20,000 bases of DNA from Chiloscyllium plagiosum (taxonomy: Eukaryota): the NCBI RefSeq assembly GCF_004010195.1, contig NC_057760.1, positions 4,308,615-4,328,614 on the forward strand, written 5' to 3'. The notes under the pieces are model-generated. The model saw only the letters and a list, made by a program, of their open reading frames with translations, was not told where the DNA came from and made no database searches. The position numbers were made by a program, and so were the translations under genes. The stretch's first letter is position 1. Each line of letters starts with the position of its first letter. Below are positions 1-20,000 of this stretch, in pieces.

Positions 1-113
1 TACCAAACGCCTTCTTCACTATCTTATCTACCTGCGACCCTACCTTCAAGGAGCTATGAACCTGCACTCCAAGGTCTCTTTGTTCAGCAACACTCCCCAG
101 GACCTTACCATTA
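1..113 (-). mobile_element. CR1-clade LINE ORF2 fragment (post-RT C-terminal region), continues off the left edge
   Basis: Minus-strand translation LNGKVLGSVAEQRDLGVQVHSSLKVGSQVDKIVKKAFG, typical of CR1 ORF2 downstream of the RT core. Confidence 0.85.
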
Positions 114-1360
114 AGCACAAAGTATGTACATGCACAGGGAATACACAGCCACTTTTGGGACAGCGGCAATACACGGAGAACATGGAAGGGCATTCGGGCC
201 ATCACCGACCACAGAACAGCATCGCCTGCTTGTGCTGGTAATGCCTCCTTCCCAGATGAGCTAAACAACTTCTATTTTGAGGCACAAAATGATGTGGCGG
301 TGAGGAAGACTATCACCCCCCACCACCCCCACCCCATCACCTATGAGCAGGTGCTGTGTCTTACTTTGGCCAACGTGAGAAAAATCCTACATAGAGTTAA
401 CCCTGGCAGAGTGCTCAGAGGATGCTCCAACATAGTGTCAGATGTTTCATGGACACTTTTATGTCTCCATGAGCTGTGCCATAGTTCCAATGTGCTTCAA
501 AGGGCGCTATCATCGTCCCCGTGCTGAAGAAGTCTCCAGCGTCCTGTCTCAACAACTACTGCCCTGTTGCACTAACACCCATCATCATTAGGTGTTTTGA
601 GAGACTCATGATGAGGCATATTAAGACCCTGCTGCCCCCCTCACTGGGCACCTTGCAGTTCATGTTTCATCCCAACCGCTCAACTGATGATACCATTCCC
701 ACCACCCTCCATCTGGCCCTCACCCACCTGGAGAAGAAGGACACCTACATCAGATTACTGTTCATAGATTTCAGAGCTGCATTTATCACTACCATTCCTC
801 AGCACCTGATTGGAAAGCTGAGTCTGCTGGGCCTGAATCCCTCCCAGTGTGACTGGATCCTGGAGTTCCTGACTGGGAGCCCTCAGTCAGTCTGGATTGG
901 GAACAGCCTCTCCAACACCATCACACTGAGCACGGAGATCCCCACCCTTTCCCCACCCCTTCCCCACCCCTCCCCCCCCCTCCCCCTCCTCCCCCCTCCC
1001 AGGGCTGTGTGCTCAGTCCACTGCTGTTCATCCTGCTGACACATGATTGTGCAGCAATGCACACCTCGAATCACATCACGACTGTAGTGGGTCTCATCAG
1101 CATGAAACGATGAGTCAGCATACAGAGAGGAGGTGCAGCGGCTAGCGAACTGGTGCAGAACCAACAACTGACTCCGAATATGGACAAGATGAAAGAGATG
1201 GTTATTAATTTCATGATGGCACAGAGTGATCACTCTCCACTGGACATCAGTGGCTCCCCTGTGGAGATCGTGAACAGCACTAAACTTCTTGGCGTCCACC
1301 TGGCGGAGAATCTCACCTGGTCCCTCAACACCAGCTCCATAGACAAGACAGCCCAGCAGC
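114..1360 (+). mobile_element. Rex1/Babar-clade LINE RT fragment, degenerate and 3'-truncated
   Basis: Motifs [64 protein letters not shown]...KTAQQ, with frameshifts and stops. It ends abruptly at AQQ. Confidence 0.8.
941..1000. repeat. C-rich low-complexity tract inside the Rex RT, just before the QGCVL motif
   Basis: About 60 nt made almost entirely of C runs separated by single A or short T runs. Confidence 0.85.
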
Positions 1361-2090
1361 ATAAATCCCCAGGACCTGATCAGGTGTACCTGAGAACTCT
1401 GTGGGAAGCTACAGCAGTGATTGCTGGGCCTCTTGCTGAGATATTTGTATCATCGATAGTCACAGGTGAGGTGCAGGAAGACTGGAGGTTGGCAAACGTG
1501 GTGCCACTGTTTAAGAAGGGTGGTAAAGACAAGCCAGGGAACTATAGACCAGTGAGCCTGACCTCGGTGGTGGGCAAGTTGTTGGAGGGAATCCTGAGGG
1601 ACAGGATGTACATGTATTTGGAAAGGCAAGGACTGATTAGGGATAGTCGACATGCCTTTGTGCATGGGAAATCATGTCTCACAAACTTGATTGAGTTGTT
1701 TGAAGAAGTAACAAAGAAGATTGATGAGGGCAGAGCAATAGATGTGATCTATATGGATTTCAGTAAGGTGTTCGACAAGGTTCCCCATGGGAGACTGATT
1801 AGCAAGGTTAGATCTCATGGAATAGAGGGAGAACTAGCCATTTGGACATAGAACTGGCTCAAAGGTAGAAGACAGATCCTGGTGGTGGAGGGTTGCTTTT
1901 CAGACTGCAGGTCTGTGACCAGTGGAGTGCCACAAGGATTGGTGCTGGGTCCTCTACTTTTTGTCATTTGCGTAAATGATTTGGATGCGAGCATAAGAGG
2001 AACAGTTAGTAAGTCTGCAGACGACACCAAAATTGGAGATGTAGTGGACAGCGAAGAGGGTTACCTCAGATTACAACAGGATCTGGAAGA
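1361..2090 (+). mobile_element. CR1-clade LINE RT core fragment
   Basis: KSPGPDQVY, WRLANVVPLFKKG, PGNYRPVSLTSVVGK, KSCLTNL, DVIYMDFSKVFDKVPH, SGVPQGLVLGPLLF, SADDTKIG, ending at LQQDL. One in-frame stop at 1849-1851. Confidence 0.92.
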
Positions 2091-2294
2091 ATAGCAAACG
2101 GAATGACAAGGCTATCCTGCCGAGATGTCGACCAACTCGAGTCTGCGCTGGGCCCATTCAATTGAACTCTTCAACAAGTGATAAGTAAAATAAGATATAA
2201 GAGAAAACAAAATGAGGAAAGAAAGAATAAAAAGAAAAGGAGACAAGTCCCAGGCTCAAAAACCCTAATTCACCATCATCTTGCTGGAAATCAA

Positions 2295-3130
2295 TGGCTA
2301 CAAGAGCAGGTCAGAGGTTGGGAATCTGCGGTGAGTCCCTCAGCCCCAGACTCCATAAAGCTTGTCCACCATCTACAAGTCACAAGTCAGGAGTGTGATT
2401 GAATACTCCCCACTTGCCTGGATGGGTCCATCTCCAACAACACTCAAGAAATAACTGGATTAAATAACTCCACAGAGGCCAGTATCCCGTCACCAAGTCA
2501 CCTTTTATTTACACGTGCATAGTCCTTAACACTGATCCAGCTCCCTCAGAGCCACCTCTCAGAGTGAGCAGAACCCTGACATACCTGTTATGTCTGTCAG
2601 CCAGGGCTTTCTGATTGGACCGGTTAACAGCCCCAATCAGGGAATGTATATTGAATGAGCTTCACCTGGCAACTTTATTACAATCACTTTGCTTAACGCC
2701 ATCCAGGCCAAAGCATGCTTGATTGGTATTATATCCACAGGAATCCACACCCCCTACCACTGACCCTTAATACAACAATGTGTACTACTATAAGATGCAG
2801 TGCAGAAAATCACCAAGGATCCTCAGACAACACCTTCCAAACCCACGACCAGTTCCACCTAGAAGGACAAGGGCAGCAAATACATGGGAACACCACCACG
2901 TTCAAATTCCCCTCCAAGACACTCAGCATTCCGACTTGGAAATATATCGCTGTTCCTTCAGTGTCACTGGGTCAAAATCCTGGAATTCCCTCCCTAAGGG
3001 CAGTGAGTGTCAACCCATAACACATGGACTGCAATAAATCAAGAAGGCAGCTCACCCCTATCTTCTTGAGGGGCAGTTAAGGATGGAAAATAAACATTGA
3101 TCCAGCCAATGCACACATCCCATGAATTTA
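2295..3130 (+). mobile_element. 3' end of a different CR1/L2-group LINE (degenerate ORF2 C-terminus and 3' UTR)
   Basis: Recognisable remnants LSTIYK.QVRSV.EYSPLAW, YKMQC, RRTRAA, SFSVTGSKSWNSLP. Interrupted between 2450 and 2691. Exact clade not determined. Confidence 0.7.
2451..2690 (-). mobile_element. Short solo-LTR-like insertion
   Basis: Splits the host LINE reading (CTCAAGAA | GCTTAACGCCATCCAG). Contains inverted CCAAT boxes (CTGATTGG...CCAATCAG) and a minus-strand AATAAA near 2504-2509. Termini are degraded and no TSD is visible. Confidence 0.55.
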
Positions 3131-3329
3131 CTTTTTTTAAAAAGGCTGCTCTACACTGCATCATGTTGAGACCAGAGTTCAATCAGGGCAGGGTAGTCAC
3201 CTCAGAAAAAGAGCTGAGTGAAACCTCAGACAAGCTTGAGGGATGGAACTGCAGGTGATCTGGGGTCTTCCCTGCAAGGACAGGAAACGCTGACCATTCT
3301 AATTTCAATTCCCAGAAAAAGGTGCTGCC

Positions 3330-3435
3330 ACATGTGTGCTTGTGTGTAATTGTGCATGTGTATATATGTGCTATGTCTATATGTGCATAGGTTCGTGTAA
3401 GTGCATATGTGCATACATGTCTGTACATGTATGTG
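3330..3435. repeat. Degenerate (TG/TA/CA)n microsatellite
   Basis: Alternating purine-pyrimidine tract, e.g. tgtgtgcttgtgtgtaattgtgcatgtgtatatatgtg. Confidence 0.8.
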
Positions 3436-3574
3436 GAGGTCAGGGAGAAAGGAACTTCAAAGGATATAGCATCACATCATTTTCCCTCAGCTTTTACCAG
3501 CACAGACACTATCTCATCAGTGAGTACATGCTCACGAGTAAATTCAAGGCCACAACTAGAGTAGACTAGAGTAG

Positions 3575-3800
3575 ATTTCATTTGCCATTTCTATCATATA
3601 CAACCAATAAAGTAAAAAACAAGACAGCGTTCCTCCAGGACCAAGGTGCTACATGGACAGCACAAACTACACAATCATACCAAAGTTGGCATAAAGTACA
3701 TAAGAAGTGCAAAACATGCATAACTCAGTCTAAACATTCAAAATGTCACCTGTTCAGCTATCAGAGGAGTGTAGGAGGTCAGACCAAGCTGAGTTTGGAC
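3575..3800 (-). mobile_element. Possible LINE 3' UTR remnant (Rex-like)
   Basis: Resembles, from memory only, reverse-oriented fish Rex-type 3' UTRs (CGTTCCTCCAGGACCAAGGTGC). Preceded by a 10-nt tandem duplication (ACTAGAGTAG x2). No protein motif. Confidence 0.3.
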
Positions 3801-3841
3801 AATGGAGGACTCCATCCAGAATGTTGCTACATTCATGTTAT

Positions 3842-4212
3842 ATAATACAATACAGCACAGGAAGGGTCCTTCGGCCCATCAAACCGGCACGAATTCTAAT
3901 CCATATTTAGACTCACTACTTATTGAACTTATGGTTCACTACTTATGGTTTCTTTCGTTCTGTTCGTCTCCTGTCAATGTGTCTATCAAGATAAACTTTA
4001 AACATTGCTAACATGCCTGCTTCCATTGTTTCCACTGGTAATGTGTTCCAGGCACCCACAACCCTCCATGTAAAAAAGTTTCCCCCCACTTCTCTCCTAA
4101 ACATTCCTCCTCTCACCTTGAACCTATGCCTTTTTGAAGTTGATCTTTCCACCCTGGGAAAAAGCCTCTGACCATCCAACCTATCTATGCCTCTCAATTT
4201 TGTAAACCTCTG
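3842..4212 (-). mobile_element. 5'-truncated CR1 3' end
   Basis: ORF 3943..4242 reads RGIDRLDGQRLFP...FFTWRVVGAWNTLP...FKVYLDRH. The 3' tail carries the GGTCCTTCGGCCC motif. Confidence 0.88.
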
Positions 4213-4329
4213 TTTCGCATGTGGGCTCTTTGATTGTGTCATAGAGTCCTACAGCATGGTGACAGGACTTTAGCACAACTGGTCCATGCCGACCAAAATG
4301 TCCATCCACACCAATGTCATTGCCCTGCA

Positions 4330-6430
4330 CTTCACCCATATTATTCTCAACCTTACCTATCCATGTATTTGTCCAAATGCCTTTTACACGTTGTTAATAT
4401 ACCTGCCTCAACCACTTCTGTTGGCTGCTCATTCCATATGCATACCACCCTCTGTGTAAAAATGTTGCCCCTCAAGTTCCCTTTTTATTCTTTCCCCTCT
4501 AACCTTAAACTGATGTCCTCTAGTCCTCAATTCCTCAATTCTGGGAAAAAGACAGTGCATTCACCTTAACCATGCCTCTCATGATATTATGCATCTCTGA
4601 AAGGTCCCCGTTCAGTCTCTTATGGTCTGAAGAAATAAGTCCTGGCTTGTCCAACCTCTCCCTATAACTCAGACACTTGAGTCCTGGCAACACCCTTGTA
4701 AATTTCTTCTGAATTCTTTCCAGTTTAATTCCATCCTTCATATAGCAAGGTGACCAAAACTGAACACAATACTCCAAGTGCGGCCTCACCAACGTCTGTA
4801 CAAATGCAATATAACACAATAGCACATAATAGCACAAAGCCATGCTAACTACTCCTAATCAAACACTGCCTTTCCAAATGTATGTATATCTTATCTCTCA
4901 ATCTTCTCAAGTAACCTACGCACCACAGATGTTAGACTTACTGGTCTATATTTCCCAGGCTTTTCTTGCAGCCCTTCTTGAACAAGGGCACAACATTCAC
5001 TACCCTCCAGCATTCTGGGACCTCACCCGAGGCTAACGATGATGCAAAAATATCAGCCAGAAACTGGCAATTTTTTTCTCTAGCGTCTTGCAGTGATCTT
5101 GAATATATCTGATCAGGACCAAGAGATTTATCCACCTTTATACATTCTAATACATCCAACACCTCCTCTACTGTGATATGGACTGTCCCCAAGATATCAC
5201 CACGAACTTCCCCAAGTTCCCAATCTTCATGTCTTTCTCCATGATAAACCAAGGAAAAATATTCATTGAGGACCTCGCCCATTTCCTGTGGTTCCACATA
5301 TACATCGCCACTTTGGTCCTTGAAGGACTCTATTCTCTCTCTAGTTTTCTTTTTCCTTTAATATACTGAAAGAACATCTTTGGGATTCACCCTAATTTTC
5401 TCAGCCAAGGCTATCTTGTGTCTCCTTTTTGCCTTCCTAATTTCCTTTGTCAGTAAACCCCAGCATTCCCTATATAATTCCAGGGATTTCCATGATCCCA
5501 GCTGCCTGTAAATGAGCGATAACTTCTTCTGTTTTCTGGTCAAAGCCTCCATATCTCTTGTCATCCAGGGCTCCCTATTCCTGCCAACTTTGTTCTTCAT
5601 CCTCACAGGAACATGTAGACCGTGAACTCTAGTTATCTTACTTTTAAAGGCCTCCCACTTGCCAGAGGTCCCTTTACCTGCAAACAAATTACTCCAATCA
5701 ATCTCTGCAAGCTCCTGTCTAATTCCATTAAAATTCTCCTTGCCCCAGTTTTGGACTTGAACCTGTAGACCAGTTTTGTCCCTCTTCATAACTATTTTAA
5801 AAATTAATAGAATTATGGCGACTGGGCCCACAGTGCTCCCCACTGTCACCTCTGTCACCTGTCCTGCCCTATTTCCCAAGAGTAGTTCAGGTTTTGCCCC
5901 TTCCCAAACAGGACCCCGCTGAGGAAACTTTCCTGAATGCACTTAACAAATTCCACCCCATCTAAGTCCTTAATACTCTGGCAGTCTCTGTCTATGTGAA
6001 AAAAATTAAAATCCCCTACTATGACAACCCTGTTGCTCCTGTAAGTCTTCCCAATCTCCCTGCATAGTAGTTCCTCTAATTCCCATTGACTATTTGGGAC
6101 TATCTAGTACAACCCCAATAACATCACCATCGCCTTCTTATTTCTTAGCTCCACCCACAAAGCCTCACTGGATGATTCTTCAGTTATTTCATCTTTGACT
6201 ACTACTGTGATACTCGCCTTAATCAAAAATGCAACTCCCCCACCTCTCCTTCCACCACCTCTGTCCCGCATAAAGCACCTATACCCTGGCACATTAAGCT
6301 GCCAGTCCTGTCCCTCTCTGAGCCATGTTTTGTGGTAGCTTTAATGTCCCAACCCAATGTACCTATCCACTCCCTGAGTTCACCGGCCTTACCTGTAAGC
6401 CTCTTTGCATTGAAATAAATGCATTTTGAT
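4330..6430 (-). pseudogene. CR1 ORF2p (APE endonuclease and partial RT), frameshifted
   Basis: KCIYFNA, PGYRCFMRDR..RGGGVAFLIK, EALWVELRNKK, PWMT, DKSLGPDQIY, WRVVNVVPLFKKG, VRPHLEYCVQFWSP. Confidence 0.88.
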
Positions 6431-6550
6431 CCAAAAGGCATTCCTTGTTCCATCCTGACCTGTCTCTTCAACTTACTATTTCTGATTACTGTATCCCCTT
6501 CCAGTCTCACATCTATCTCCCTGCTTTTGAGGATCCCAACCCCCTGCCAA

Positions 6551-7481
6551 TCTAATTTAAACCCTCCCTTGCAACACTAGCAAATCTGGCCGCCATGATA
6601 TTGATCCCCTTCTATTTCAGGTGCAACCCATCCTTCCTAAACAGTTCACCTCTGCCCCAAATAAAATCCCAATGATCTAAAAATGTGAATCGCTGCCCCC
6701 TGCACCAATTCTTTAGCCAGGTATTCATCCACCATATCCTCCCATTCTTACCCTCACTAGCACATGGCATTGGAAGCAATCTGGAGATTATCACTGATAA
6801 GATGCTGGTTTTTAACTTTATTCCAAGCTCTCTACAATCACTCTGCAGGACCTCATCCCTATTTCTACCTATGTCATTTGTGACAACGTGCACAATGATT
6901 TCTGGCCTCTCCGTGTCCGCCTTGAGAACATGATGCAGCTGCTCAGAGACATCCTGGACCCTAGCACCTGGCAGGCAACACAACATCCTGGATTCCTGTT
7001 TGATGCCACAAAATCTCATATTTGTCCCCCAAACTATGGAGTCTCCTATCACTGTGGTGCTGTTTACCTTTATCCTTTTCCACTGTGCTCCAGAGCCAGT
7101 CGTAGTGCCACCAACGTGGCTACTGCTGCTTTCCCCTGAATGGTCATCCCTTCCATCAGTATCCAAAACAGTATACTTGTTTTTGAGGGGAATGGCCACA
7201 GGGGATTCCTGCACTCTCTACCTACTCCCTCTGCCTTTCCTGGTGGTCACCCAGCTACTCTTTGCCTGCACTTTAGGTGTGACCATTTCATTACAACTCT
7301 TATCTATGAAGTGCTCAATATCTTGGATGATCCTGAGACCATCCAGCTCCAGCGCCCTAACACGGTCTCCTAGGAGCTGCAGCTGGATGCACTTCCCACA
7401 CGTGTAGTCATCAGAGAAAATGGAAGTCCCCCTGAGCTCCCAGATCTTGCAAGAGGAACATGTGACTGTCCTAACTGACAT
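6551..7481 (-). pseudogene. CR1 ORF1p: zinc finger/coiled coil plus SGNH-type esterase, disrupted by stops
   Basis: MSVRTVTCSSC..WE...CGKCIQLQLL, then blocks GDSIV, PGARVQD, HVVTND and DGLHL. The ORF-track pieces 7218..7481 and 6612..7214 are in frame, separated by one stop. Confidence 0.88.
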
Positions 7482-7829
7482 CTTAATTGCTGTAAGACTA
7501 AAGAGGAAAGTTAAATGGACTTTATCTGAGCTTACCTGTACTTTTTGCTGATCTGCTGCTGTCTGAAGCCTCTCAAGCCAAAGCCTTCCTTCTTACTCTG
7601 CTACCAACAAACTTTGCAATAGCACATCTCTCTGTCCCTCCACTTTTTTTTTTAATTAGAGGAGGAGAAAAGGAGGGAGATTGAAAGATTTCCAACTCTT
7701 TATGTTTCCATTCAGGATTGGTGACCCTCTTTCTGACTGTTCGGCACTGGGTGGGTGAAATGGATGGTTGAATATATATTTATGAACTTACTTGCAGGTT
7801 CACTTCCTAATAATAATAGCCATCATCCA

Positions 7830-7871
7830 TTTATTGCTCCAAACCTTTCGAGTGTTAGCTGGAGCAATAAA
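7830..7871. repeat. Perfect 12-bp inverted repeat (hairpin)
   Basis: TTTATTGCTCCA (7830-7841) and TGGAGCAATAAA (7860-7871) with an 18-nt spacer. Confidence 0.85.
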
Positions 7872-8305
7872 CATTCAGGCCCCAATCTTCTCTCAAATGT
7901 GAGAACTCACCATTGGTACCTGGAATTTCTTTGTTATCCTGTCACCATTTATTTATTCCTGACCAAGTAGGAATGGTGATTAGGCAGACTATTCATCTGC
8001 TCAATGTCGCCCATAAATGCTCAGTGCTGTTTCCACTTTAGAACATTTCCTTTACCTCATCATCCCCAAACAGTGCCCTTGTTACCAGCTTAGTGCTTCA
8101 CTTAATGTAATTATCTTCTAATGCAGATAAAATTCAGATAATCTAAGTAAAGCATCAGACAGCAATCATCATACTGTAACAACTACACCCCCCCAACACA
8201 GGAAAAACTGAAGGATCAACATAAACTTCCAGCAGAATGTTTGATATGTTGTTCAACAATGAGTTGTACTACACCTTACTCTCGAATACAAACACAAGGT
8301 AGAAA

Positions 8306-8535
8306 TTAAGACCAGGAATAGGCCATTCAGCCCTTCAAGTGTGCTTTACCATTAATACAGTCCCCTGTTCCTGCTTTCTCCCCATTACCTTTGATCTTTA
8401 GCCTCTCCTTGAAAACATTCAATGTTTTGGTCTCAACCACTTCTGAGCAGTGATTTCCACAGGCTCACCACTCTCTGGGTTTCAGTCCTAAATGGCCTAT
8501 TCATTATTCTTACACTGTGACCCTGGTTCTGGATT
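8306..8535 (-). mobile_element. Older CR1 family, 3' tail portion (continues at about 11696)
   Basis: Tail motif GGAATAGGCCATTCAGCCC and a FHRLTTLW-type antisense signature (TTCCACAGGCTCACCACTCTCTGGGT). Cut at about 8535 by a younger CR1. Confidence 0.7.
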
Positions 8536-8949
8536 AGAACAAGAACAAAGAACCTTACATGTGCGAGAACAGGCCCTTCGACCGTCTAAGCCCGCACTGA
8601 TCCAGATCTTCTATCTAAACTTGCCACCTATTTTCTGAGGATCTATATCCCTTTGCTCCCTGCCCATTCATATAACTATCTAGATACATCTTAAATGATG
8701 CCATTGTTCCCACCCCTACTTCCTCCACTGGCAACACATTCCAGGCACCCACCACCCTCTGCGTGAAGAACTTTCCACGTATATCTGCCGTAAACCTTTC
8801 CCCTCTCACTTTGAACTCGTGAACTCTGGTAATTGAGTGCTCCACTCCTGGAAAAAAGTTTCTTGCTATCCACCCTGTCTATACCTCTCATGATTTTGTA
8901 GGCGTCAATCAGGTCTCCCCTCAACTTCCTTCTTTCCAATGAAAATAAT

Positions 8950-9476
8950 TTGAATTTGTGAATTTGTACTTGCAGAGTTACATTGCACTTTGCTCAAAAA
9001 CTGCATACATTCATGTATAACTCTGAGCTCAAAAACTGCATGAATTTATGTAAAACTCTGTTATCTCACTTTTTAGATTAGAATCAATCTAAACATCAGG
9101 TCATAGACAGAGAACACAGGGGGCTAACACCTTCAACATATTGTCTAGCTATCACCATTGTTAACAGCTAACCTGAGAATGCAACTTTAAAAAGAAAGGG
9201 TTTTGTGATTTACACATGAAAGAAGTGAAACTATCACTGTCTTCTAACAGGTGAAAGGCTTAACAGACAATCAATTTTTCAATGTATAATTTCAGTTACA
9301 TCACACTGCAAATTTTTGCTATAAATTCTGTGTTACGATCGAGCCCTCCACAACCACCTGATGAAGGAGCGTCGCTCCGAAAGCTAGTGCTTCCAATTAA
9401 ACCTGTTGGACTATAACCTGGTGTTGTGTGATTTTTAACTTTGTACACCCCAGTCCAACACCGGCATCTCCAAATC
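8950..9476 (+). mobile_element. Non-coding Penelope-like terminal repeat (pLTR/3' UTR) insertion with an 11-bp TSD
   Basis: Flanked by ATGAAAATAAT at 8939-8949 and 9477-9487, interrupts CR1 ORF2, and contains a PLE-type minimal hammerhead. The PLE assignment is inferred from the ribozyme type. Confidence 0.75.
9355..9389 (+). ncRNA. Minimal type I hammerhead ribozyme motif
   Basis: CAC-CTGATGA-A-GGAGC-gtc-GCTCC-GAAA-GC-TA-GTG: conserved core, 5-bp stem II, 3-bp stem I (CAC/GTG), palindromic AGCT in place of stem III. Confidence 0.8.
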
Positions 9477-11695
9477 ATGAAAATAATCCTAATCTACTCA
9501 ACTTCCCTCATACCAGGCAACATCCCGATGAACCTCCTCTGTACCCTTTTGGTAATGTGGTGACCAGGACTGTACGCAGTATTCCAAATGTGGCCAAACC
9601 AAAGTACTATACAACTGTAACACGACCTGCCAACTCTAGTACTCAATAATCCGTCCTATGAAGGAAAGCATGCCATATACCTTCTTGACCACTGTACTGA
9701 CCTGCGTTGCCACCTTCAGGGAACAATGGATCTGAACACCCAGATTTCTCTGTATCAAATTTCCCCAGGACTTTTCCATTTACTGTATAGTTCGCTCTTG
9801 AATTGCATCTTCCAAAATGTATCGCCGTGCATTTGTCCGGATTGAACTCCATTTGCCATTTCACTGCCCAACTCTTCAATCCAACTATATTCTGCTGTAT
9901 TATCTGACAGTCCCTTTCACCATCTGCTACTCCAACAATCTTAATGTCATCTGCAACCTTCTAATGAGGTAATCTACACCTTTCTCCAAATCATTTACGT
10001 ATATCACAAACAACAATGATCCCAACACAGATCCCTGTGGGACACCACTGGTAACAGGTCTCCATTTTGAGAAGCTCCCTTCCACTACTGCTCTCTGTCT
10101 CCTGTTGCTCAATCAGTTCTCTATCCATCTAGCCAGAACACCCTGGACCCCATGCGACTTCACCTTCTTCATCAGCCCACTATGGAGAACCTTATCAAAT
10201 GTCTTAGTAAAGTCCATGTATATGACATCTACATTCCTCATCGATCAACTTTGTCACCTCTTCAAAGATTTCTATTAGATTTGTAAGACATGACCTTCCC
10301 TGCACAAAACCGTGCTGCCTATCACTGATAACTCATTTTCTTCCAAATGGGTATATAATCCTATCTCTTAGTATCTTCTCCAGTAGCTTCCCTACCACTG
10401 ACGCAGGCTCACAGATCTGTAATTACCTGGATTATCCCTGCTACCTTTCTTAAACAAGGGGACAATATTAGCAATTTTCCAGTCCACCGGGACCTTCCCC
10501 GTGTTCAAGGATGTTGCAAAGGTATCTGTTAAAGACCTAGCTATTTCCTCTCTCACTTCCCTCAGTAACCTGGGATAGATCCCATCTGGACCTGGGGACT
10601 TATCCACCTAATGCCTTTTAGAATACCCAAGACATCCCCCCCTCCTTATGCCAACATGACCTAGAGTAATCAAACGTCCATCTGTAACCTCAACATCCAT
10701 CATATCCCTCTCCTTGGTGAATACCGATGCAAAGTACTCATTAAGAATCTCTGACTCCACACATAACTTTCCTCCTTCGTCCTTGAGTGGGCCAACCCTT
10801 TCTCTAGTTACCCTCTTGCTCCTTATATATGAATAAAAGGCTTTGGGGTTTTCCTTAACCCTGTTTGCTCAGGATATCACATGACCTCTTTTAGTCCTCT
10901 TAATTCCTTGTTTCAAATTGATGCTACATTCCCAATATTTTTTCAAAGATTCATCTATCTTCAGTCACCTCGACCTTATGTACACATCCTTTTTGCTCTT
11001 AGCTAGTCTCACAATTTCAACTGTCATCATGGTTCCTTAATCTTGCCATTTCTATCCCTCATTTTCACAGGAACATATCTCTCCTGGACTCTAATCAACC
11101 TCTTTCTAAAAGCCTCCCATGTATCAAATGTGGATTTACCTTCAAACAGCTGCTCCCAATCCACATTCCCAGCTCCTGCCGAATATTGGTATTGTTGGCC
11201 TTCCCCCAGTTTAGCTCTTCCTTTAGGATACCCTCGTCTCTGTCCATGAGTATCCTAAAACTTACAGAATTGTGATCACTATTCCCAAAGTAATCCCTTA
11301 CTAAAATGTCAACCACCTGCCAGGCTCATTCCCCAACAGCAGATCCAGTATGGCCCCTTCCTGAGTTGGACTATTTACGTACTGCTCTAGAACACCCTCC
11401 TGGATGCTCCTTACAAATTCTGCTCCATCCAGACTCTAACACTAAGTGAATTCCAGTCAATGTTGGGAAAATTAAAATCTCCTATATCACCACCCTGTTG
11501 CTCCTACATCTTTCTATGGTCTCTCTACATATTTGTACCTCTATCTCACATTGTTACTGCACTCTTCCTACTTCTGAGCTCTGCCCATATTGCCTCACTG
11601 CTTGAGTCCCCCATAGTACCCTCCTTCAGCACAGCTGTGATATCCTCTCTGACAAGTAATGCAACTCCTCCACCCATTTTACCTCCCTCCCTATC

Positions 11696-12270
11696 CCTCT
11701 CTATCATTGGGAACAGCCTTTTTGCATTTATCCTGTACAGTCCTTTTAGAATTCTATCGGTTTCAATTAGGTCCTTTTCATTCTTTTAAACTCCAATGAA
11801 TATAGCTCTAACTCGATCTAGTCTCTCTCCATACGTTACTTCACCCCAGGAATCAGTCTTATTACACTCCTTCAATAACCAGAGCATCCTTCCTCAGATG
11901 AGGAGGCCAAAACTGCTCACAATATTCTAGGTTTGGTCTCAACAAGGCTCTGTGTAATTGCAGCAGGATATTCCTGCTCCTTGAATCATATCCTCTTGCT
12001 ATGAAGGCCAAAATCTAATTTGCAGTTGTACCTGCACACTTCCTTTCAGCAACGAGTGTATCGAGAGACCCAAGTATCATCACACCTCCCCCATCCCACT
12101 CTACTGCCATTCAAATAATAATGCACCTTCCAAGCCCTGATTCCTGCAGCATCCCAATAGTCATTGCCTTCCACTCAGAAATGAGCTTTTTACTCTTGTT
12201 CTTTGTTTCCTATCTAACACTATCCCCAATCTCATGTGCTTTAACTCAGAGACTTCTCTGCACCATTGCA
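11696..12270 (-). mobile_element. Older CR1 family, continuation of 8306-8535
   Basis: Degenerate antisense CR1 ORF2 C-terminus (CCAAAACTGCTCACAATATTCTAGGTTTGGTCTCAACAAGGC reads ALLRPNLEYCEQFW on the minus strand). Confidence 0.7.
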
Positions 12271-13399
12271 CCTGGCATTTCCTTCTGTTCTGTTTGTCTG
12301 TTTCCTTCTTCAGGCCAATTATTCTATTGTTAGCACTTCATTGGATTGACAGCAATCATCGAACAGCATTGGCATAACTCCAAGTTTTCTTTCACATTCT
12401 GCAAATGGCTTTGTGCCAACAAACCATTTAGTCTAGTCTCGCTTCAATCTGCTGATGGCTGAGTACGTTTATAAGGTGATGTATTTCTTAATCCTCCCAA
12501 GAGTCTGCCACAAAATCAAAGCTGAAATCAGCTTCTAGTTTGGAAAGGTTTACCTCAGAATACAACTAACCATTAACCATGCACAACTCTAACAACTGAA
12601 CTTTCACTGATGAACACAGCAATTGGCCAAGTCCTTAGATCTTATCTGTATTGAAACAGGCTTTTGTTTTACAACATGGAAAGAGTTTGAGCCATTTTAT
12701 TCTTTAAATCATTGGGGATTGGCAGGAGACAGCTGTTCTCTGGATGAAGAAAGTTGTTCAAATTTCAAAACAGCAAGCACAGACATTCCCCCCTCACTCC
12801 CTTCCTAAGGTACAGGCTAATTCATTTGGATATATGCATCTGCAGCTGTCAGTACCACAACCATGTGGCCATGCTTCAGAACTTTGCTCAGCCAGTCACT
12901 CCTCAACAATGGGTAGCATTTCAGCATCACCACAAGTTCACAGGCAACAAGTGCCTTGGGTTGTGACTGGGAACAAGGAAAGCTGGCTGAAGATTTCATT
13001 CAACACCAGGGAAACTGAGGGCAATTAGAGCTCCTTTTCTTTTCCATGTGTCTGGGAACTGTTTGTATCCTGAGCCTCAAAACCAGGTCATCAAACACTT
13101 TATGCCCCAATCTCTGGAATTCCTTTATTTAATTTCTATATATTTGAACTGCGCTCTCCTCCTTTCAAGCTCTCTATGACAACCTCTCCCAATGCTAATG
13201 AGTCTCAAACAGTGGATCACCTAAACAATGAGTGGGATTGCAGAAAATGAAATCACATTTACCTCACAGCATGCAATATAATTGTCAGGCTTAATAAAGG
13301 CATGTTCACAACTAATCAAAGACAGTGCAGGAAATCCTTACTCTTTACCCTAGGACTTCTACATGGTGCAATATGTGTGATTTCAGCTGAAGCAGTGGC

Positions 13400-13530
13400 A
13401 GCCTCAATGGAAGTCCCTTCAGTTACTTCATTTCTGATTACTGCAGTGATACTGGTCTTAATCAAAAAATGCAATTCCCCCTCCCCTCTTTCCACCACCT
13501 CTGTCCCACCTAAAGCACCTGCACCGTGAT
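13400..13530 (-). mobile_element. Isolated internal CR1 APE-endonuclease fragment
   Basis: Aligns by eye to 6162-6290 (FLIKTSITAVIRNEVTEGTSIEA versus FLIKASITVVVKDEITEESSSEA). Confidence 0.8.
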
Positions 13531-13534
13531 ACCT

Positions 13535-13641
13535 TACATCCTTCATGGTAACCTCAGCCAGTGATGGGAATTAGCCCCACAGTGTTGGCATCACACTGCT
13601 TCACAAATCAATTGTCCAGCCAACTGAGCTACACCAACCCC
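13535..13641 (-). mobile_element. tRNA-derived SINE head
   Basis: Minus strand GGGTTGGTGTAGCTCAGTTGG (A box, 13620-13631) and GGGCTAATTCC (degenerate B box, 13567-13577). No intact cloverleaf is evident. Confidence 0.65.
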
Positions 13642-13953
13642 ACATGAATGCACATGGCAATGAGCATGTTTCATCCTGATTCTTAGATCTTCCAAAAATT
13701 GTGTTCTTAAAGCAACACAGTTGTTAAAGCAAGAACAAATCATCTCCCACTCCAATTCCCAATGCATCATGAATTAAAAATCCAGCTTTAGGTAACTAGG
13801 AGACACCCTCCAATCCAACTTCCTGGCCTCCCAACCTCAGCACCTTATAAACGATACAGTTGGACAGTGATCTTCATGGGGTAAATCATTGGCTAATGTT
13901 CTTCTCCTTCCCACTCACATATTATGGTCTTTCCGCACATCATCATGTTTTAC

Positions 13954-14084
13954 CTTTGTCACAGAGGATGCCACCCCAGTTAGTCTCACAGTCACACTGC
14001 CAGGGTTCAGAGCATGTTCCATGAATGCAGCCTGGGAATGGAATGCACATGCTGCAAAGGACCCCTTGCCAACCATAGTGACAC
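13954..14084 (-). CDS. Internal coding exon of a Jagged/Serrate-family Notch ligand (end of EGF1 plus EGF2, equivalent to JAG1 exon 6); paralog not assigned
   Basis: Acceptor ctcctctggttctgcag|G and donor AAG|gtaaaa, 131 nt, phase 2 to phase 1. Translates [43 protein letters not shown]. CETNWGGxLCDK is Jagged-type, whereas Delta-like ligands have CQEGWGGLFCNQ. Confidence 0.95.
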
Positions 14085-14239
14085 CTGCAGAACCAGAGGA
14101 GCTACGTGTCAGAAAATATCTTTCTGTCCACAGGGGAGGCAACATAACAAAATATGAGCCATCAGAAAAGCAACTTGTTATAATTTTTTTCCAGGACACA
14201 ATAAGATAACATTTCAACAATTACATGAATTGGTTGGGT

Positions 14240-14345
14240 TCCACAATGACTTACCACCTCCAGATTCAAATCCCACATTGACCAATGGGATGACATGTTT
14301 CATTCTGTTAATTGAAAAGGTTTCACTTGAAATGAGTTTAAGGAA
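14240..14345 (+). mobile_element. Possible ancient tRNA-derived SINE remnant (LF-SINE-like)
   Basis: CACCTC..ATTCAAATCC (B-box-like) followed about 60 nt later by TGAAATGAGTT, an order matching my recollection of LF-SINE-type consensus. Highly diverged. Confidence 0.35.
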
Positions 14346-14701
14346 TTGTTATCACCATTAAAGGGTCACTCTATTCAGTGCAGGGATTAGCCTGTAAGCA
14401 TGCTCCTCTGAACCTTTCTAATATATCTGTAAGTGCATTAAGATCAAGCAGTTTAGCAACTTACTCTAACTCATTGTTCTCTAAGAACCTCAGCAAAGTA
14501 GAACTCACCTGAACATCATCTGGTGGACCTTCTATAAAAGGAGATCTGCCCGGTCATTTAATGGATTACCTCATTTCATATTCATTCTAATATTGCTCAA
14601 CATTTTGAAAGGCAGTAAATGGATTTGGCTAATAGACTTGTAAAAATCTGATAAAATAGTGAAAATGGATTGAGGACAGAATGATCTGGCCTTGATCCTA
14701 C

Positions 14702-15652
14702 TGTTGGAGAGCAGAGGTCGACATGCCTCTGATAATTAAAACCGAAACACCCAGAGAAGGTCACCTCGCCTCATAATCTGATAAAAATGTGTGACAAGGG
14801 TATAACCTATCTGTCAATCCCAAACCTGTTATAAAGGAGTGGTTAAATGAAATGAAATTCTTTCACTCACTCTACAATTAACAAATCATTTATTTATCTA
14901 ATTCTAACAATGAACAAATTAACAGAATTCCTAACCAACTGAACAGTTATTCCCTAATTTACTGCCTATTCCCTTACTGCATTAAATTCTATTGGTATGC
15001 TCTTTCAATACATAGCTCCCATTTATTTAAATCCAGACAATAAGAACAACGAGTAAAAGTCTCTCAAAGTTCACAAGAATGGACCCTCTGGAATGTTCCA
15101 CTGTCCTCTCCAGCTTCTCTCCTCTGTCTCTTCTGCTGCCTTCCTCGGTCTGATATGCCTTCTCATTTTGCCGAATTCTGGGGTCTGGAATATTACCTTT
15201 TATGAATACAGTAGATGGAAAGAAATTTTTTTTTTGGAAAGGGCGCAGAGATTTCGTGTGAGAGCCAGATTTGTATTTCTCTGATGGTGGATTTGCACTC
15301 ATTTCTGATGGCAGTTCACTCTCTTAATTTTCAAATGCTGGCAGCTTTTATGCCCGTGTTTACATATCAATTTCTTTAAAATGAGGTTAGTTTGAAGTAG
15401 TCAAAACCAACAGATTTGAATTTAATTGGTCCTTTAGTCTCCAAGTGTCTTTTCAAATTAATTGGATGATATTACGCTGTTGTCTGGGTAAAAATGTTGA
15501 TTGGATTTGCTAACTGAAAAGTCTTTGTTTCAATTTTGGGGCCCTCTGCGTGATGCTTGCAAACTTCCAAGCACAATCTCTTTCAAGGAACCACACACTG
15601 CTTTTCAATTCATTTTATAATTTTATCATATTTACATACCAACTTTATGACA
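14702..15652 (-). mobile_element. Probable solo LTR (about 950 bp)
   Basis: TGT...ACA termini and an imperfect 4-bp TSD (CTAC 14698-14701, CTGC 15653-15656). Minus-strand TATA-like CATAAAAG near 15345-15353 and AATAAA near 14889-14895, in LTR order. No coding motifs. Confidence 0.45.
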
Positions 15653-15709
15653 CTGCACAAATAATTAAAAATAGCAATGCAAATTAATTTAAGAGCAGAA
15701 GAAAGAGGC

Positions 15710-16035
15710 AAGGGAATAGACCATTCAGCCCATCCAACCTGCTCTAAGATTCAGTACAATGGTCGTTGATCTTTGTCTCAAATCCAGATTCCTGCTTACT
15801 CTCTATTTCCCTCATATCCCTGAGAAATCAAAATCTGTATCCCGAGCATTAAATATATTCAACAATGGAGCATCTTCAACATTTTAGGGTGGAAAACTTC
15901 AAAGACCACCAACCCTATGAATTTTTCCCGAGTCTAGTCTTAATAATTGAGCCATTATCCCTAATCCACACTCCAATGTTCTAAATTCCCAATCCAGTGC
16001 CTACCCTGTCAAATCCTGTCAGAATATTGCATGTA
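15710..16035 (-). mobile_element. Old CR1 3' end
   Basis: Tail GGAATAGACCATTCAGCCC and CTACCCTGTCAAATCC, similar to 8306-8535. Confidence 0.65.
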
Positions 16036-16084
16036 TGAAAGATCTGGGTTTCATTTAAAGAGGGATACAACTGAAAATTCAAGA

Positions 16085-17170
16085 AGTTACTTCCAGCTTG
16101 TGTTTGGTAATAGTCCTTCAAAATTTTGTAGATTCTCGGACAGTCCAGTGGGTTGGAGGTTATTCAATGCTGCACCATTATTCAAGAAAGGAAGAAGATC
16201 CAAATGCAGGGAACTGTAGGCCAGTTAGCCTGTTGTAAGGCACAGGAAAATGCTGCAATCTATTCGTAAGGAAGCTGTAACAATTCACTGAAACTATCAT
16301 TGCAATTAAGAAGGTAAATTACGTCTTGTCCTTCATTGGAAGGTGACTAGTGTGCAAAAATAAGAAAATCATGCTACAATTTTACAGTGCTTGGAGGACA
16401 ATGCAAAGTTTTGGTTGGCAAGCTAAAGAATGAACATACTTATATACGGGGGGGGGGCGCAGGTTGGCATGGTGGTTCAGTGGTTAGCACTGCTGGCTCA
16501 CAGTGCCAGGAACCTGGGTTCAATTCCAGTCTCCGACGACTGTGTGGAGTTTGCATGTTCTCCCCGTGTCTGCATGGGTTTCCTCCAGGTGCTCTGGTTT
16601 TCTTCCACAATCCAAAGATGTGCAGGTCAGATGAATTTACCATGCTAAATTGTCCATAGTGTTCAGGGATGTGTAGGTTCGGTGCATTAGTCAGGGTCTA
16701 GTAACAGGGTAGGGGAATGGGTTGAGTGGGTTACTCTTCAGAGGGTCGGTGTGGGCTTGTTGGGCCAAAGGACCTGTTTCCACACTGTAGGGATTTTATG
16801 AGAACTCTATGAGTATCAGAAGCACAACAGTGACAGGTCACTAGTTGAACCTTGGGAAGAAAGAACTGTTCAATGATGAGAGATTGAGTCAATGGACTCT
16901 GAGGTTTACAAGTACAATAGTTGATCTCATTTAAACATAAATTATAATAAGAATAGAAAGGCACTGAAGAAGGCAAAACAAGTGGCAGGAATCAAACTAG
17001 AACTTAAACATTACATTTATATTATCAGACCTTTCTTGTCTGAAAATACAGTAGGCTGAGGTGTGATGTCATATAGGTCTTTAGAATTATGAAGAGGTTT
17101 GATAGCGTAGATGTAGTAAAGGTGCTTCACTTTTGGAGACCAGAAAACTAGGAGCTAGAAGAATTAAATT
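16085..17170 (+). mobile_element. Fragmented old CR1 ORF2 pieces (about 16085-16440 and 16890-17170), interrupted by the HE1 SINE
   Basis: WRLFNAAPLFKKG, RPVSL remnant, and a later VFRIMKRFDSVDV-like segment. Heavily deleted. Confidence 0.6.
16462..16800 (+). mobile_element. HE1-type SINE (V-SINE superfamily, elasmobranch)
   Basis: A box TGGTTCAGTGG, B box GGTTCAATTCC, V-domain TGTGGAGTTTGCATGTTCTCCCCGTGTCTGC..GGGTTTCCTCC, and a CR1/HER1-like tail GGGCCAAAGGACCTGTTTCCACACTGTAGGGATTTTATG. Confidence 0.9.
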
Positions 17171-17177
17171 GTCACCA

Positions 17178-17618
17178 CCAGGGATATATTTCCCTCCCCT
17201 CCCCTATCAGCGTTCTGAAAAGACCACTCCCTCCGTGACTCCCTCGTCAGGTCCACACCCCCCACCAACCGAACCTCCACTCCCGGCACCTTCCCCTGCA
17301 ACCGCAAGAAATGCAAAACTTACGCCCACACCTCCCCCCCTTACTTCCCTCCAAGGCCCCAAGGGATCCTTCCATATCTGCCACAAATTTACCTGCACCT
17401 CCACACACAGCATTTATTGCATCCGCTGCACCCGATGTGGCCTCCTCTATATTGGGGAGACAGGCCGCCTACTTCCGGAACGTTTCAGAGAACACCTCTG
17501 GGACACCCAGACCAACCAACCCAACCACCCCGTGGCTCAACACTTCAACTCCCCCTCCCACTCCACCAAGGACATGCAGGTCCTTGGACTCCTCCACCGC
17601 CAGACCATAGCAACACGA
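17178..17618 (+). mobile_element. Penelope-like element (Neptune-type) GIY-YIG endonuclease region, runs into the gap
   Basis: Cys-rich linker FPCNRKKCKT, a frameshift near the C-run at about 17330-17340, then FTCTSTHSIYCIRCTRCGLLYIGETGR...RFREH...PVAQHFN. Confidence 0.88.
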
Positions 17619-18526
17619 NNNNNNNNNNNNNNNNNNNNNNNNNNNNNNNNNNNNNNNNNNNNNNNNNNNNNNNNNNNNNNNNNNNNNNNNNNNNNNNNNN
17701 NNNNNNNNNNNNNNNNNNNNNNNNNNNNNNNNNNNNNNNNNNNNNNNNNNNNNNNNNNNNNNNNNNNNNNNNNNNNNNNNNNNNNNNNNNNNNNNNNNNN
17801 NNNNNNNNNNNNNNNNNNNNNNNNNNNNNNNNNNNNNNNNNNNNNNNNNNNNNNNNNNNNNNNNNNNNNNNNNNNNNNNNNNNNNNNNNNNNNNNNNNNN
17901 NNNNNNNNNNNNNNNNNNNNNNNNNNNNNNNNNNNNNNNNNNNNNNNNNNNNNNNNNNNNNNNNNNNNNNNNNNNNNNNNNNNNNNNNNNNNNNNNNNNN
18001 NNNNNNNNNNNNNNNNNNNNNNNNNNNNNNNNNNNNNNNNNNNNNNNNNNNNNNNNNNNNNNNNNNNNNNNNNNNNNNNNNNNNNNNNNNNNNNNNNNNN
18101 NNNNNNNNNNNNNNNNNNNNNNNNNNNNNNNNNNNNNNNNNNNNNNNNNNNNNNNNNNNNNNNNNNNNNNNNNNNNNNNNNNNNNNNNNNNNNNNNNNNN
18201 NNNNNNNNNNNNNNNNNNNNNNNNNNNNNNNNNNNNNNNNNNNNNNNNNNNNNNNNNNNNNNNNNNNNNNNNNNNNNNNNNNNNNNNNNNNNNNNNNNNN
18301 NNNNNNNNNNNNNNNNNNNNNNNNNNNNNNNNNNNNNNNNNNNNNNNNNNNNNNNNNNNNNNNNNNNNNNNNNNNNNNNNNNNNNNNNNNNNNNNNNNNN
18401 NNNNNNNNNNNNNNNNNNNNNNNNNNNNNNNNNNNNNNNNNNNNNNNNNNNNNNNNNNNNNNNNNNNNNNNNNNNNNNNNNNNNNNNNNNNNNNNNNNNN
18501 NNNNNNNNNNNNNNNNNNNNNNNNNN
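17619..18526. other. Assembly gap (908 N)
   Basis: Continuous run of N. Confidence 1.
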
Positions 18527-18544
18527 TCCTTGCATGGGATTTTG

Positions 18545-18838
18545 TACACTACTATTATAGGACAAGCCAAACAGAGAACAGCCAGGGAATTCCTAGAGGC
18601 ATGGTACTCATCCACAGATTCTATCAACAAACACATCGACCTGGACCCAATATACCAGCCACTGCAGCAGACAGCTGGAACTGACAACCGGAAGCGGCAG
18701 AAACAAACCACTATAAATGCTGGAGGAAACAACACAGAAGCGCTTCACAGGAGGCTCCCAAGCACTGAGGATGTCACCTAGCCAGGGGACGAAACGTCTG
18801 CAACACAAATTCCCAGCTCGGCAAACAGAACCACAACA
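18545..18838 (+). mobile_element. 3' end of a second Penelope-like family (Penelope/Poseidon-type GIY-YIG C-terminus and terminal repeat)
   Basis: IIGQAKQRTAREFLEAWYSSTDSINKHIDLDPIYQPL followed by a hammerhead motif. Confidence 0.8.
18762..18801 (+). ncRNA. Minimal type I hammerhead ribozyme motif
   Basis: GCA-CTGAGGA-T-GTCACCT-agcc-AGGGGAC-GAAA-CG-TC-TGC: core CUGANGA/GAAA, stem II (GTC/GAC and CCT/AGG), stem I GCA/TGC, palindromic ACGT, GUC triplet ending at 18798. Confidence 0.85.
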
Positions 18839-19515
18839 GTAACCTGTTCTAACTCTTTAATGTTTTGATGTGAGGAGCCATTTGACATTTGATTGATTTG
18901 TAACCATGCCACACTTCAGCACATTTTCTGAAAGTGACATTGTTTCACACATAAAGCATTCTTTTTAATAGGTCCATGACTTCTTCTGTCTGCAAGATTT
19001 TCTTGTTTCACAGCACTGACATTGTAGTCAGATTTGTCTCACTCACCAAAATGGTTTCTCACATGCACCTGTAAGTGTTTTGTACCTTAAAAGCTAAATA
19101 GCTTGTGCTACTCTCCTGTGATAAAGTAGTTTATCTCTCAGAATCAATCTGTGCTAATTTTGAACTTCTGCTTCTCTTACCATCTGAATGGCTTTCTCTA
19201 CCACCAACTCTTCTTTCAACAGTTATAAATCTGACAAAACAATTCAACGATGAATTCTGAGTTTAAATGTCCAAAGTCACATTTTTCACTAATCTGTAGA
19301 GTTCACTAAAACCTTACTCTTCTGTGAATTTTAATTATTCTCAGGTTAAACTAATTGTCAGAGGCTTTCAATATTTAATCAAATGCATCTGCTGTTCCTT
19401 TTACATCTTGTTGAGGTACAATATCATCAACCACACTCCCAATTATATCCAAAAGTATATTTATTTGCTCAGCTTTTGATTTAGTATGTAATTTGGAAGC
19501 AATTTTGTATCTTAA

Positions 19516-20000
19516 GAATTAGAATATAGAACATAGAACAATACAGCACAGAACAGGCCCTTCGGCCCACGATGTTGTGCCGAACATTCGTCCTAGCTTA
19601 AGCACCCATCCATGTACCTATCCAATTGCCGCTTAAAGGTCACCAAAGATTCTGACTCTACAACTCCCACAGACAGCGCATTCAATGCCCCCACCACTCT
19701 CTGGGTAAAGAACCCACCCCTGACATCTCCCCTATACCTTCCACCCTTCACCTTGAATTTATGTCCCCTTGTAACACTCTGTTGTACCCGGGGAAAAAGT
19801 CTCTGACTGTCTACTCTATCTATTCCTCTGATCATCTTATAAACCTCTATCAAGTCACCCCTCATCCTTCGCCGTTCCAAAGAGAAAAGGCCTAGCATGC
19901 TCAACCTATCCTCGTACGACCTATTCTCCATTCCAGGCAACATCCTGGTAAATCTCCTCTGCACCCTCTCCAAAGCTTCCACACCTTTCCTAAAGTGAGG
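19516..20000 (-). mobile_element. Young CR1 (HER1-like) 3' end, continues off the right edge
   Basis: Uninterrupted ORF 19593..19982 (ALERVQRRFTRMLPG...RGDLIEVYKMIRG...FFTQRVV) and an (AGAACAT)-type tail with GGCCCTTCGGCCC. Confidence 0.93.

Follow-up and report, generated by a model that had tools for sequence, protein, structure and literature searches.

The textbook set of vertebrate Notch ligands consists of DLL1, DLL3 and DLL4 together with JAG1 and JAG2, and among these mammalian DLL3 is a ligand of the cis-inhibitor type. Gazave et al. characterize Jagged proteins by the presence of a vWC region and by 12-18 EGFs, and describe the role of the Jagged-specific distal ectodomain as unclear (PMC2770060). 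Only two Jagged genes are entered for mouse, human and chick in a review table of 2024, and only jag1a, jag1b, jag2a and jag2b for zebrafish (PMC10859470). Here we describe an exon of the bamboo shark Chiloscyllium plagiosum that very probably belongs to an expressed, third Jagged gene of jawed vertebrates, one that has lost the distal ectodomain and whose product is likeliest an ordinary membrane Notch ligand.

The exon lies in a window of 20,000 nucleotides, the whole stretch of DNA that we analyzed (Table 1). An AG/GT-bounded exon of 131 nt with eight cysteines, in a frame outside the list of open reading frames, had been proposed in the initial annotation; we confirmed each of these features and found that the exon is read on the minus strand from 14084 to 13954, with ...ggttctgcAG before it and GTaaaa after it. 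Its frame (1 nt, 43 codons and 1 nt) is missing from the window's 91 ORFs of at least 60 aa because it is too short for that limit. The 43-residue peptide, with its eight cysteines, covers the end of EGF1 and the whole of EGF2 (the DOS region), corresponding to residues 252-294 of the full protein, and the edge bases fit the split codons, the first one finishing that of Lys 251 and the last one opening that of Asp 295. We take it to be the equivalent of Jagged exon 6. In Pfam the peptide matches EGF_DL_JAG (E=1.9e-13) and also JAG1-like_EGF2; among solved structures it matches human Jagged-1 at E=8.5e-21, with scores of 76 bits for Jagged-1, 74 for Jagged-2, 64 for DLL1 and 55 for DLL4. The exon is real, and its similarity lies far above chance. 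Alignment bears out the earlier estimates of about 11 and 12 differences, the peptide differing from human JAG1 at 11/43 and from human JAG2 at 12/43 residues. The CSMC motif to which the same annotation drew attention is indeed present, but it is not diagnostic: it is a private bamboo-shark change found in 1 of 106 sequences of the clade described below, most of which carry CD[QEKR]C, and was rejected as a marker of the third clade on that count.

Table 1. Gene features in the 20,000-nucleotide window (position 1 is its first letter).
Feature	Position	Strand	Remarks
Downstream intron	1..13953	minus	13.9 kb or more, packed with LINE fragments; EGF3 exon outside the window
Splice donor GTAAAA	13948..13953	minus	GT at 13953-13952
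Jagged-type coding exon	13954..14084	minus	131 nt; phase 2 in, phase 1 out
Splice acceptor	14085..14104	minus	AG at 14086-14085; pyrimidine-rich tract (0.7 C+T)
Upstream intron	14085..20000	minus	Preceding 61-nt-type exon either beyond the window or within the N gap at 17619-18526

Neither tblastn nor exact 6-mers of the full protein located another exon of this gene in the window, and no other gene was found there; the N gap accounts for 908 bases. Broken LINE reverse-transcriptase frames (Pfam RVT_1) occupy 485-1039 and 1114-1851 on the plus strand, and many further LINE-like pieces lie on the minus strand from about 3900 to 11800. A GDSL esterase-like frame at 6612-7217 (minus strand, E=2.7e-6, under the Pfam cut-off) resembles what we take to be ORF1 of CR1-type LINEs, and a GIY-YIG-like frame at 17106-17618 (plus strand, 22.2 bits, just below the cut-off), which enters the N gap, is presumably the end of a Penelope-type element. 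Translated frames at about 16440-16700 point to what we assume is a tRNA-derived SINE-like sequence of a kind common in sharks; an Rfam scan gave no matches, including for this region. On either side of the exon lie high-copy repeats, at 13453-13656 and 14677-14800, with contig depths of hundreds to thousands.

A search of sequencing runs listed 13, of which eight contain part of the stretch and four were aligned to the window; none of the eight is recorded as RNA, which is no evidence either way. Two of the aligned runs, presumed to be RNA (two samples of one study), each provide one contig over 13954-14089. These contigs, 151 and 209 nt long, cover nothing in the flanking unique intron sequence, depart from the genome exactly at the donor edge, 13954, and continue in letters foreign to the window (the longer contig has stretches of 45 and 28 such nt). 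In the two other aligned runs, exon and introns are covered alike. With a guessed RNA label and a depth of 2-3, the pattern of the two contigs is that expected of a spliced transcript and suggests that the exon is spliced.

All full-length proteins compared here are automatic gene models. The exon peptide is identical at 43/43 residues to C. plagiosum 'jagged-1b' (XP_043540049-52, 476-572 aa). This species also has a separate, canonical JAG1 (XP_043552556), located on a sequence of 105.9 Mb as against 4.6 Mb for the short gene; over C2-DSL-EGF1-3 the two proteins are 56% identical, whereas shark and lemur JAG1 share 80%. The bamboo-shark short protein matches the Pfam families MNNL (E=1.8e-55) and DSL (3.2e-19) as well as EGFs, and a hydrophobic, transmembrane stretch can be read from its sequence, giving the layout of a DSL ligand: an N-terminal C2 (MNNL) domain, DSL, EGFs and a transmembrane helix. 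In isoform X3 (XP_043540051) 64 residues are omitted in frame, exactly EGF1 and EGF2, which are encoded by two exons including that of the window. The model stops in frame just ahead of a C-box-like tail motif that the short proteins of two other sharks keep, which may reflect a real stop or an assembly error.

The EGFs present in the short proteins line up in sequence with Jagged EGF1-9. Behind EGF9 stands a stub with two cysteines, which represents the opening part of Jagged's split EGF10, and the transmembrane helix follows a few residues on. This junction is found in shark, paddlefish, gar, bichir, teleosts, axolotl and caecilian, and the common end point suggests one ancestral deletion; we infer that a single event joined the stub to the transmembrane exon. 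The short proteins have no EGF10-16, no cysteine-rich vWC region and no juxtamembrane ferredoxin-like domain (PF23575). This truncation to a Delta-like layout, out of sight of the initial annotation, is the gene's most unusual trait. In a Pfam scan the last of these was absent from 4/4 short proteins and present in shark JAG1 and ray JAG2, and it was missing from 17 of the 120 best profile-search matches, all of at most 820 aa. The absence of vWC is read from the sequences, which leave no room for it between the EGF9 stub and the membrane, Pfam having missed vWC in the controls too. Short-clade proteins measure 460-870 aa, with six EGFs in the two full shark models, which are without three further EGFs, three in the sawshark model and up to nine in bony vertebrates. 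With neither vWC nor ferredoxin-like domain, and with fewer than 12-18 EGFs, the short protein falls outside the domain definition of Jagged. Judged by its sequence, it is a DSL ligand, Jagged by descent and Delta-like in shape by convergence. A search of the ESM Atlas with the C-terminal part returned generic EGF clusters as best matches (0.89), with structural TM below 0.4.

Phylogenetic analysis supports the conclusion that the exon's gene represents a third Jagged lineage of jawed vertebrates, separate from JAG1 and JAG2. Our first tree comprised 303 columns of C2-DSL-EGF1-3 from 50 sequences; 5 of 55 (Rhinatrema, the Geotrypetes short protein, Eublepharis, Epinephelus jag1a and Puntigrus jag2) were left out at trimming. 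It resolved three clades, all of them containing cartilaginous, ray-finned and lobe-finned members: JAG1 (support 94/93), within which teleost jag1a and jag1b nest, JAG2 (98/84) and the short clade (99/99, 23 sequences). Gar is represented in all three, and JAG2 and the short gene occur together in gar, Polyodon and Elgaria. In a second tree, to which four Delta, three invertebrate and five cyclostome sequences were added (a Ciona sequence was dropped, and there was no amphioxus sequence), all Jagged/Serrate sequences including the short clade were separated from Delta at 100/100; the short clade received 91/86, and the base was a polytomy. A third tree, on a longer alignment, gave 92/86 and again no sister. 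Support for the short clade thus drops once the long cyclostome sequences are included, and the three trees disagree on its sister or show none, the cyclostome sequences shifting between trees; in every tree, the short clade follows the species tree. Its branches are longer than those of JAG1 in two trees. Short jagged-like models exist in cyclostomes as well (two in Myxine and one in Petromyzon, 453-579 aa), and one of the Myxine models, with three EGFs and a membrane helix and without the clade's tail motif, falls outside the clade. Several models auto-named JAG1-n and JAG2-n appear in excerpts of the hagfish genome supplement, and those excerpts hold no word on a third gnathostome gene.

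Because sharks, ray-finned and lobe-finned fishes all contribute members to the short clade, the lineage predates the split of sharks and bony fishes. The initial annotation had suggested a third paralog and a tree as its check, and the three trees, together with AU tests and the separate canonical JAG1 of the same species, support that idea, the short gene falling in neither JAG1 nor JAG2. Its further suggestion, retention in cartilaginous fish, finds no support as a restriction: orthologues in coelacanth, turtles and squamates and across the ray-finned fishes and amphibians show that the clade is not shark-specific, and its cartilaginous members among the matches listed come from only three shark species (Chiloscyllium, Heptranchias and Pristiophorus), with no ray or chimaera. 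These matches are the best 120 of 1589 from a profile search and the best 120 of 166 from a second search, in which the N-terminal part was the query and length was restricted to 314-1001 aa; both searches were word-filtered. They include, among fishes, coelacanth, bichir, gar, bowfin and many teleosts and, among tetrapods, axolotl, newt, two caecilians, turtles, lizards and snakes; look-ups of clusters bring in paddlefish, sturgeons and further carps and turtles. Fugu, stickleback, killifish, cavefish, a medaka species, carps, axolotl and anole are among the hosts, and the databases name the proteins jagged-1-like, jagged-1b, jagged-2-like or uncharacterised. Aldrovandia, sterlet and beluga have two copies each, which agrees with their later genome duplications.

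Mammals, birds, crocodiles, frogs, lungfishes, rays and chimaeras are all missing from the named short sequences in the matches listed, and so is zebrafish (the listing of the carp cluster covered 15 of its 68 members). Because both searches were word-filtered and gave the best 120 matches each, such absences do not prove loss. For ray, skate and chimaera, JAG1 and JAG2 were retrieved and no short-clade member was among the matches listed, which may be a loss or a search gap; in mammals and birds, we infer a loss. The short gene is mostly located on small sequences (17 Mb in Heptranchias, against 92 Mb for JAG1, and 15-31 Mb in most turtle entries), with gar as an exception (75 Mb). Such a location would fit a loss-prone microchromosome copy, an idea discussed in Hara and Kuraku 2023 (PMC10208646), whose main text does not contain 'jag'.

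Residues that contact Notch are well conserved in the clade. We examined 106 sequences: the models of bamboo shark and coelacanth, and those of the first 243 proteins that bear the tail motif. R201, Y255 and W280, which we take to be residues with roles in JAG1, are kept in 105-106 of the 106. By JAG1 numbering, R203 is present in 106/106 and F207 in 102/106; of the two C2 calcium aspartates, D140 is present in 102/106 and D144 in only 45/106 (the latter is Asn in bamboo shark). All four residues have a bearing on the binding of Notch or on the function of C2 (PMC5538765). Pfam scores for C2 and DSL are as high as in JAG1/2. The tail motif DISNxEREKLN occurs in 96/223 listed sequences and in 0/101 of those longer than 1100 aa. 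By pattern match, 89/96 tails hold an NN pair and the Asn equivalent to N1124 of the JAG1 N-box, and in all 89 the N-box Lys of JAG1 (IKN) is replaced by R, H, Q or C. The conserved motif begins with K in 96/96 tails and with K-x-D in 95/96, to be compared with JAG1 KQD at 1199; aligned by eye, it is a candidate for the C-box. N- and C-boxes are the sites to which Mind bomb binds, and in fly ligands the first Lys of the C-box is key (PMC11887331, PMC12577249).

The retention of Notch-contact residues and of Mind-bomb-type tail motifs makes a working ligand the likeliest reading, and we consider it fairly probable that short Jagged binds Notch and trans-activates it. Its C2-DSL-EGF1-3 region would bind Notch on an adjacent cell; the tail would recruit Mind bomb through its N-box-like (NN...LI-R/Q-N) and C-box-like (K-x-D-I-S-N-x-E-R-E-K-L-N) motifs, and endocytosis of the ligand could then pull the receptor open. 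Such a protein would combine a Jagged-type head with a Delta-like length, and so a shorter reach, and a tail of its own.

Some of the same features could instead describe a protein that binds Notch, signals weakly and has cis-inhibition or competition as its main task, in the manner of mammalian DLL3. The clade evolves faster than JAG1, as its longer branches indicate; the N-box Lys is replaced in 89/89 pattern-matched tails, the bamboo-shark tail is without the C-box-like motif, and annotated isoform X3 omits EGF1-2. Weaker Mib1 binding tilts Delta to cis-inhibition (PMC11887331). We regard this reading, the chief alternative, as possible but unlikely, given that the DSL contacts, the N-box Asn and the C-box Lys are kept in about 100 sequences from sharks to lizards and that the Pfam C2 and DSL scores equal those of JAG1/2. 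A third lineage that is real, with a bamboo-shark copy decaying toward a pseudogene, is improbable: the open frame, the full set of cysteines, the intact splice sites, the spliced-looking contigs and the 75% identity to the Heptranchias orthologue over C2-EGF3 have to be set against the longest branch among the three sharks, the private CSMC, the early tail end, the low depth of the RNA contigs and the want of a ray or chimaera orthologue among the matches listed.

It is very unlikely that the gene is a shark JAG1 or JAG2 that evolves fast, or a duplicate of one of them that arose recently in sharks alone, although the database names 'jagged-1b', 'jagged-1-like' and 'jagged-2-like' would suit such an origin and canonical JAG2 was found in rays and in no shark among the matches listed. 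AU tests reject placement of the three shark short proteins with JAG1 (p=0.0034) and with JAG2 (p=0.0008), and bony-vertebrate short proteins have the truncation point and tail motif in common with them; these tests and the separate canonical JAG1 of the same species largely refute a fast-evolving JAG1 or JAG2. We give practically no credence to a Delta-like gene misnamed Jagged, an identity that the sequence refutes: the short clade lies inside Jagged/Serrate (100/100 against four Delta sequences) and outside the DLL1/DLL4/lamprey Delta group, C2-EGF3 is 56-58% identical to JAG1/2 as against 42-43% to Delta, scores against the PDB are 436 bits for JAG1, 415 for JAG2, 328 for DLL1 and 285 for DLL4, and EGF3-6 pair one-to-one with Jagged EGF3-6. 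What speaks for that identity is the size and domain list of DLL1/DLL4 (no vWC, 6-9 EGFs, 460-870 aa) and the usage of Gazave et al., who reserve the name Jagged for vWC-bearing ligands (PMC2770060).

For the third Jagged lineage that we favor, an origin in the early vertebrate genome duplications, which would make it an ohnolog, is the simplest reading and, by its timing, a likely one. Because the order of the clades is unsettled and the cyclostome sequences are unstable, it may alternatively have arisen by a single-gene duplication before the gnathostomes. Its ancestor would then have lost the distal ectodomain, leaving a signal peptide, C2, DSL, EGF1-9, the EGF10 stub, a transmembrane helix and a short tail. 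On balance we lean toward a sixth canonical class of vertebrate Notch ligand: a Jagged ohnologue made Delta-shaped by one deletion before the radiation of jawed vertebrates, with a tail kept for more than 400 million years in fishes, amphibians and reptiles, with distinct signaling and with independent losses in mammals, birds and perhaps frogs and rays. The sequences are already in RefSeq and UniRef under borrowed names, and the recognition of the clade is the new part; our literature search found no paper naming or describing it, and an earlier mention in subscription journals, bioRxiv supplements, ZFIN or Ensembl trees is quite possible. Because the genes are mislabelled jagged-1 or jagged-2, lists of Notch ligands for the host species probably lack one gene, work on Notch in these species may overlook a redundant or competing ligand, and expression tables headed 'jagged-1b' or 'jagged-2-like' can refer to the short gene. 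The ancestral ligand set of jawed vertebrates would be revised to at least three Jagged genes, and short Jagged is a case in which nature itself has removed EGF10-16, vWC and the ferredoxin-like domain, as a deletion experiment would.

Compared with known ligands, short Jagged resembles JAG1 in C2, DSL, the DOS-type EGF1-2, the colinear EGF3-9 and the stub after EGF9, as well as in the Notch-contact residues, the NN pair and N-box Asn and the C-box-like K-x-D, with 56-58% identity over C2-EGF3. It differs in forming a separate clade, in being without EGF10-16, vWC and PF23575, and in carrying Phe in place of JAG1 His268 in 100/106 sequences. JAG1 ends in EYIV, whereas the short tails of ray-finned fishes end in ELEV, ELEA or EVEA, which we assume to be a possible PDZ-binding end; no such ending is seen in sharks or tetrapods. 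To JAG2 the N-terminal domains are equally similar (56-58% identity), EGF3 of the short clade scores slightly nearer to JAG2, and JAG2 also has Arg in an N-box-like I-R-N; JAG2 nevertheless forms a clade of its own (AU p=0.0008), and short Jagged is set apart from it by its truncated ectodomain and its own tail motif. With the zebrafish 'jagged3' of the older literature, presumably a former name of full-length jag1b, the third Jagged has only the name in common. DLL1, DLL4 and DeltaA-D match it in size and in a layout of C2, DSL, about eight EGFs, transmembrane helix and tail without vWC, but at 42-43% identity and with short Jagged outside the Delta clade, this likeness appears to be convergent, the product of a deletion.
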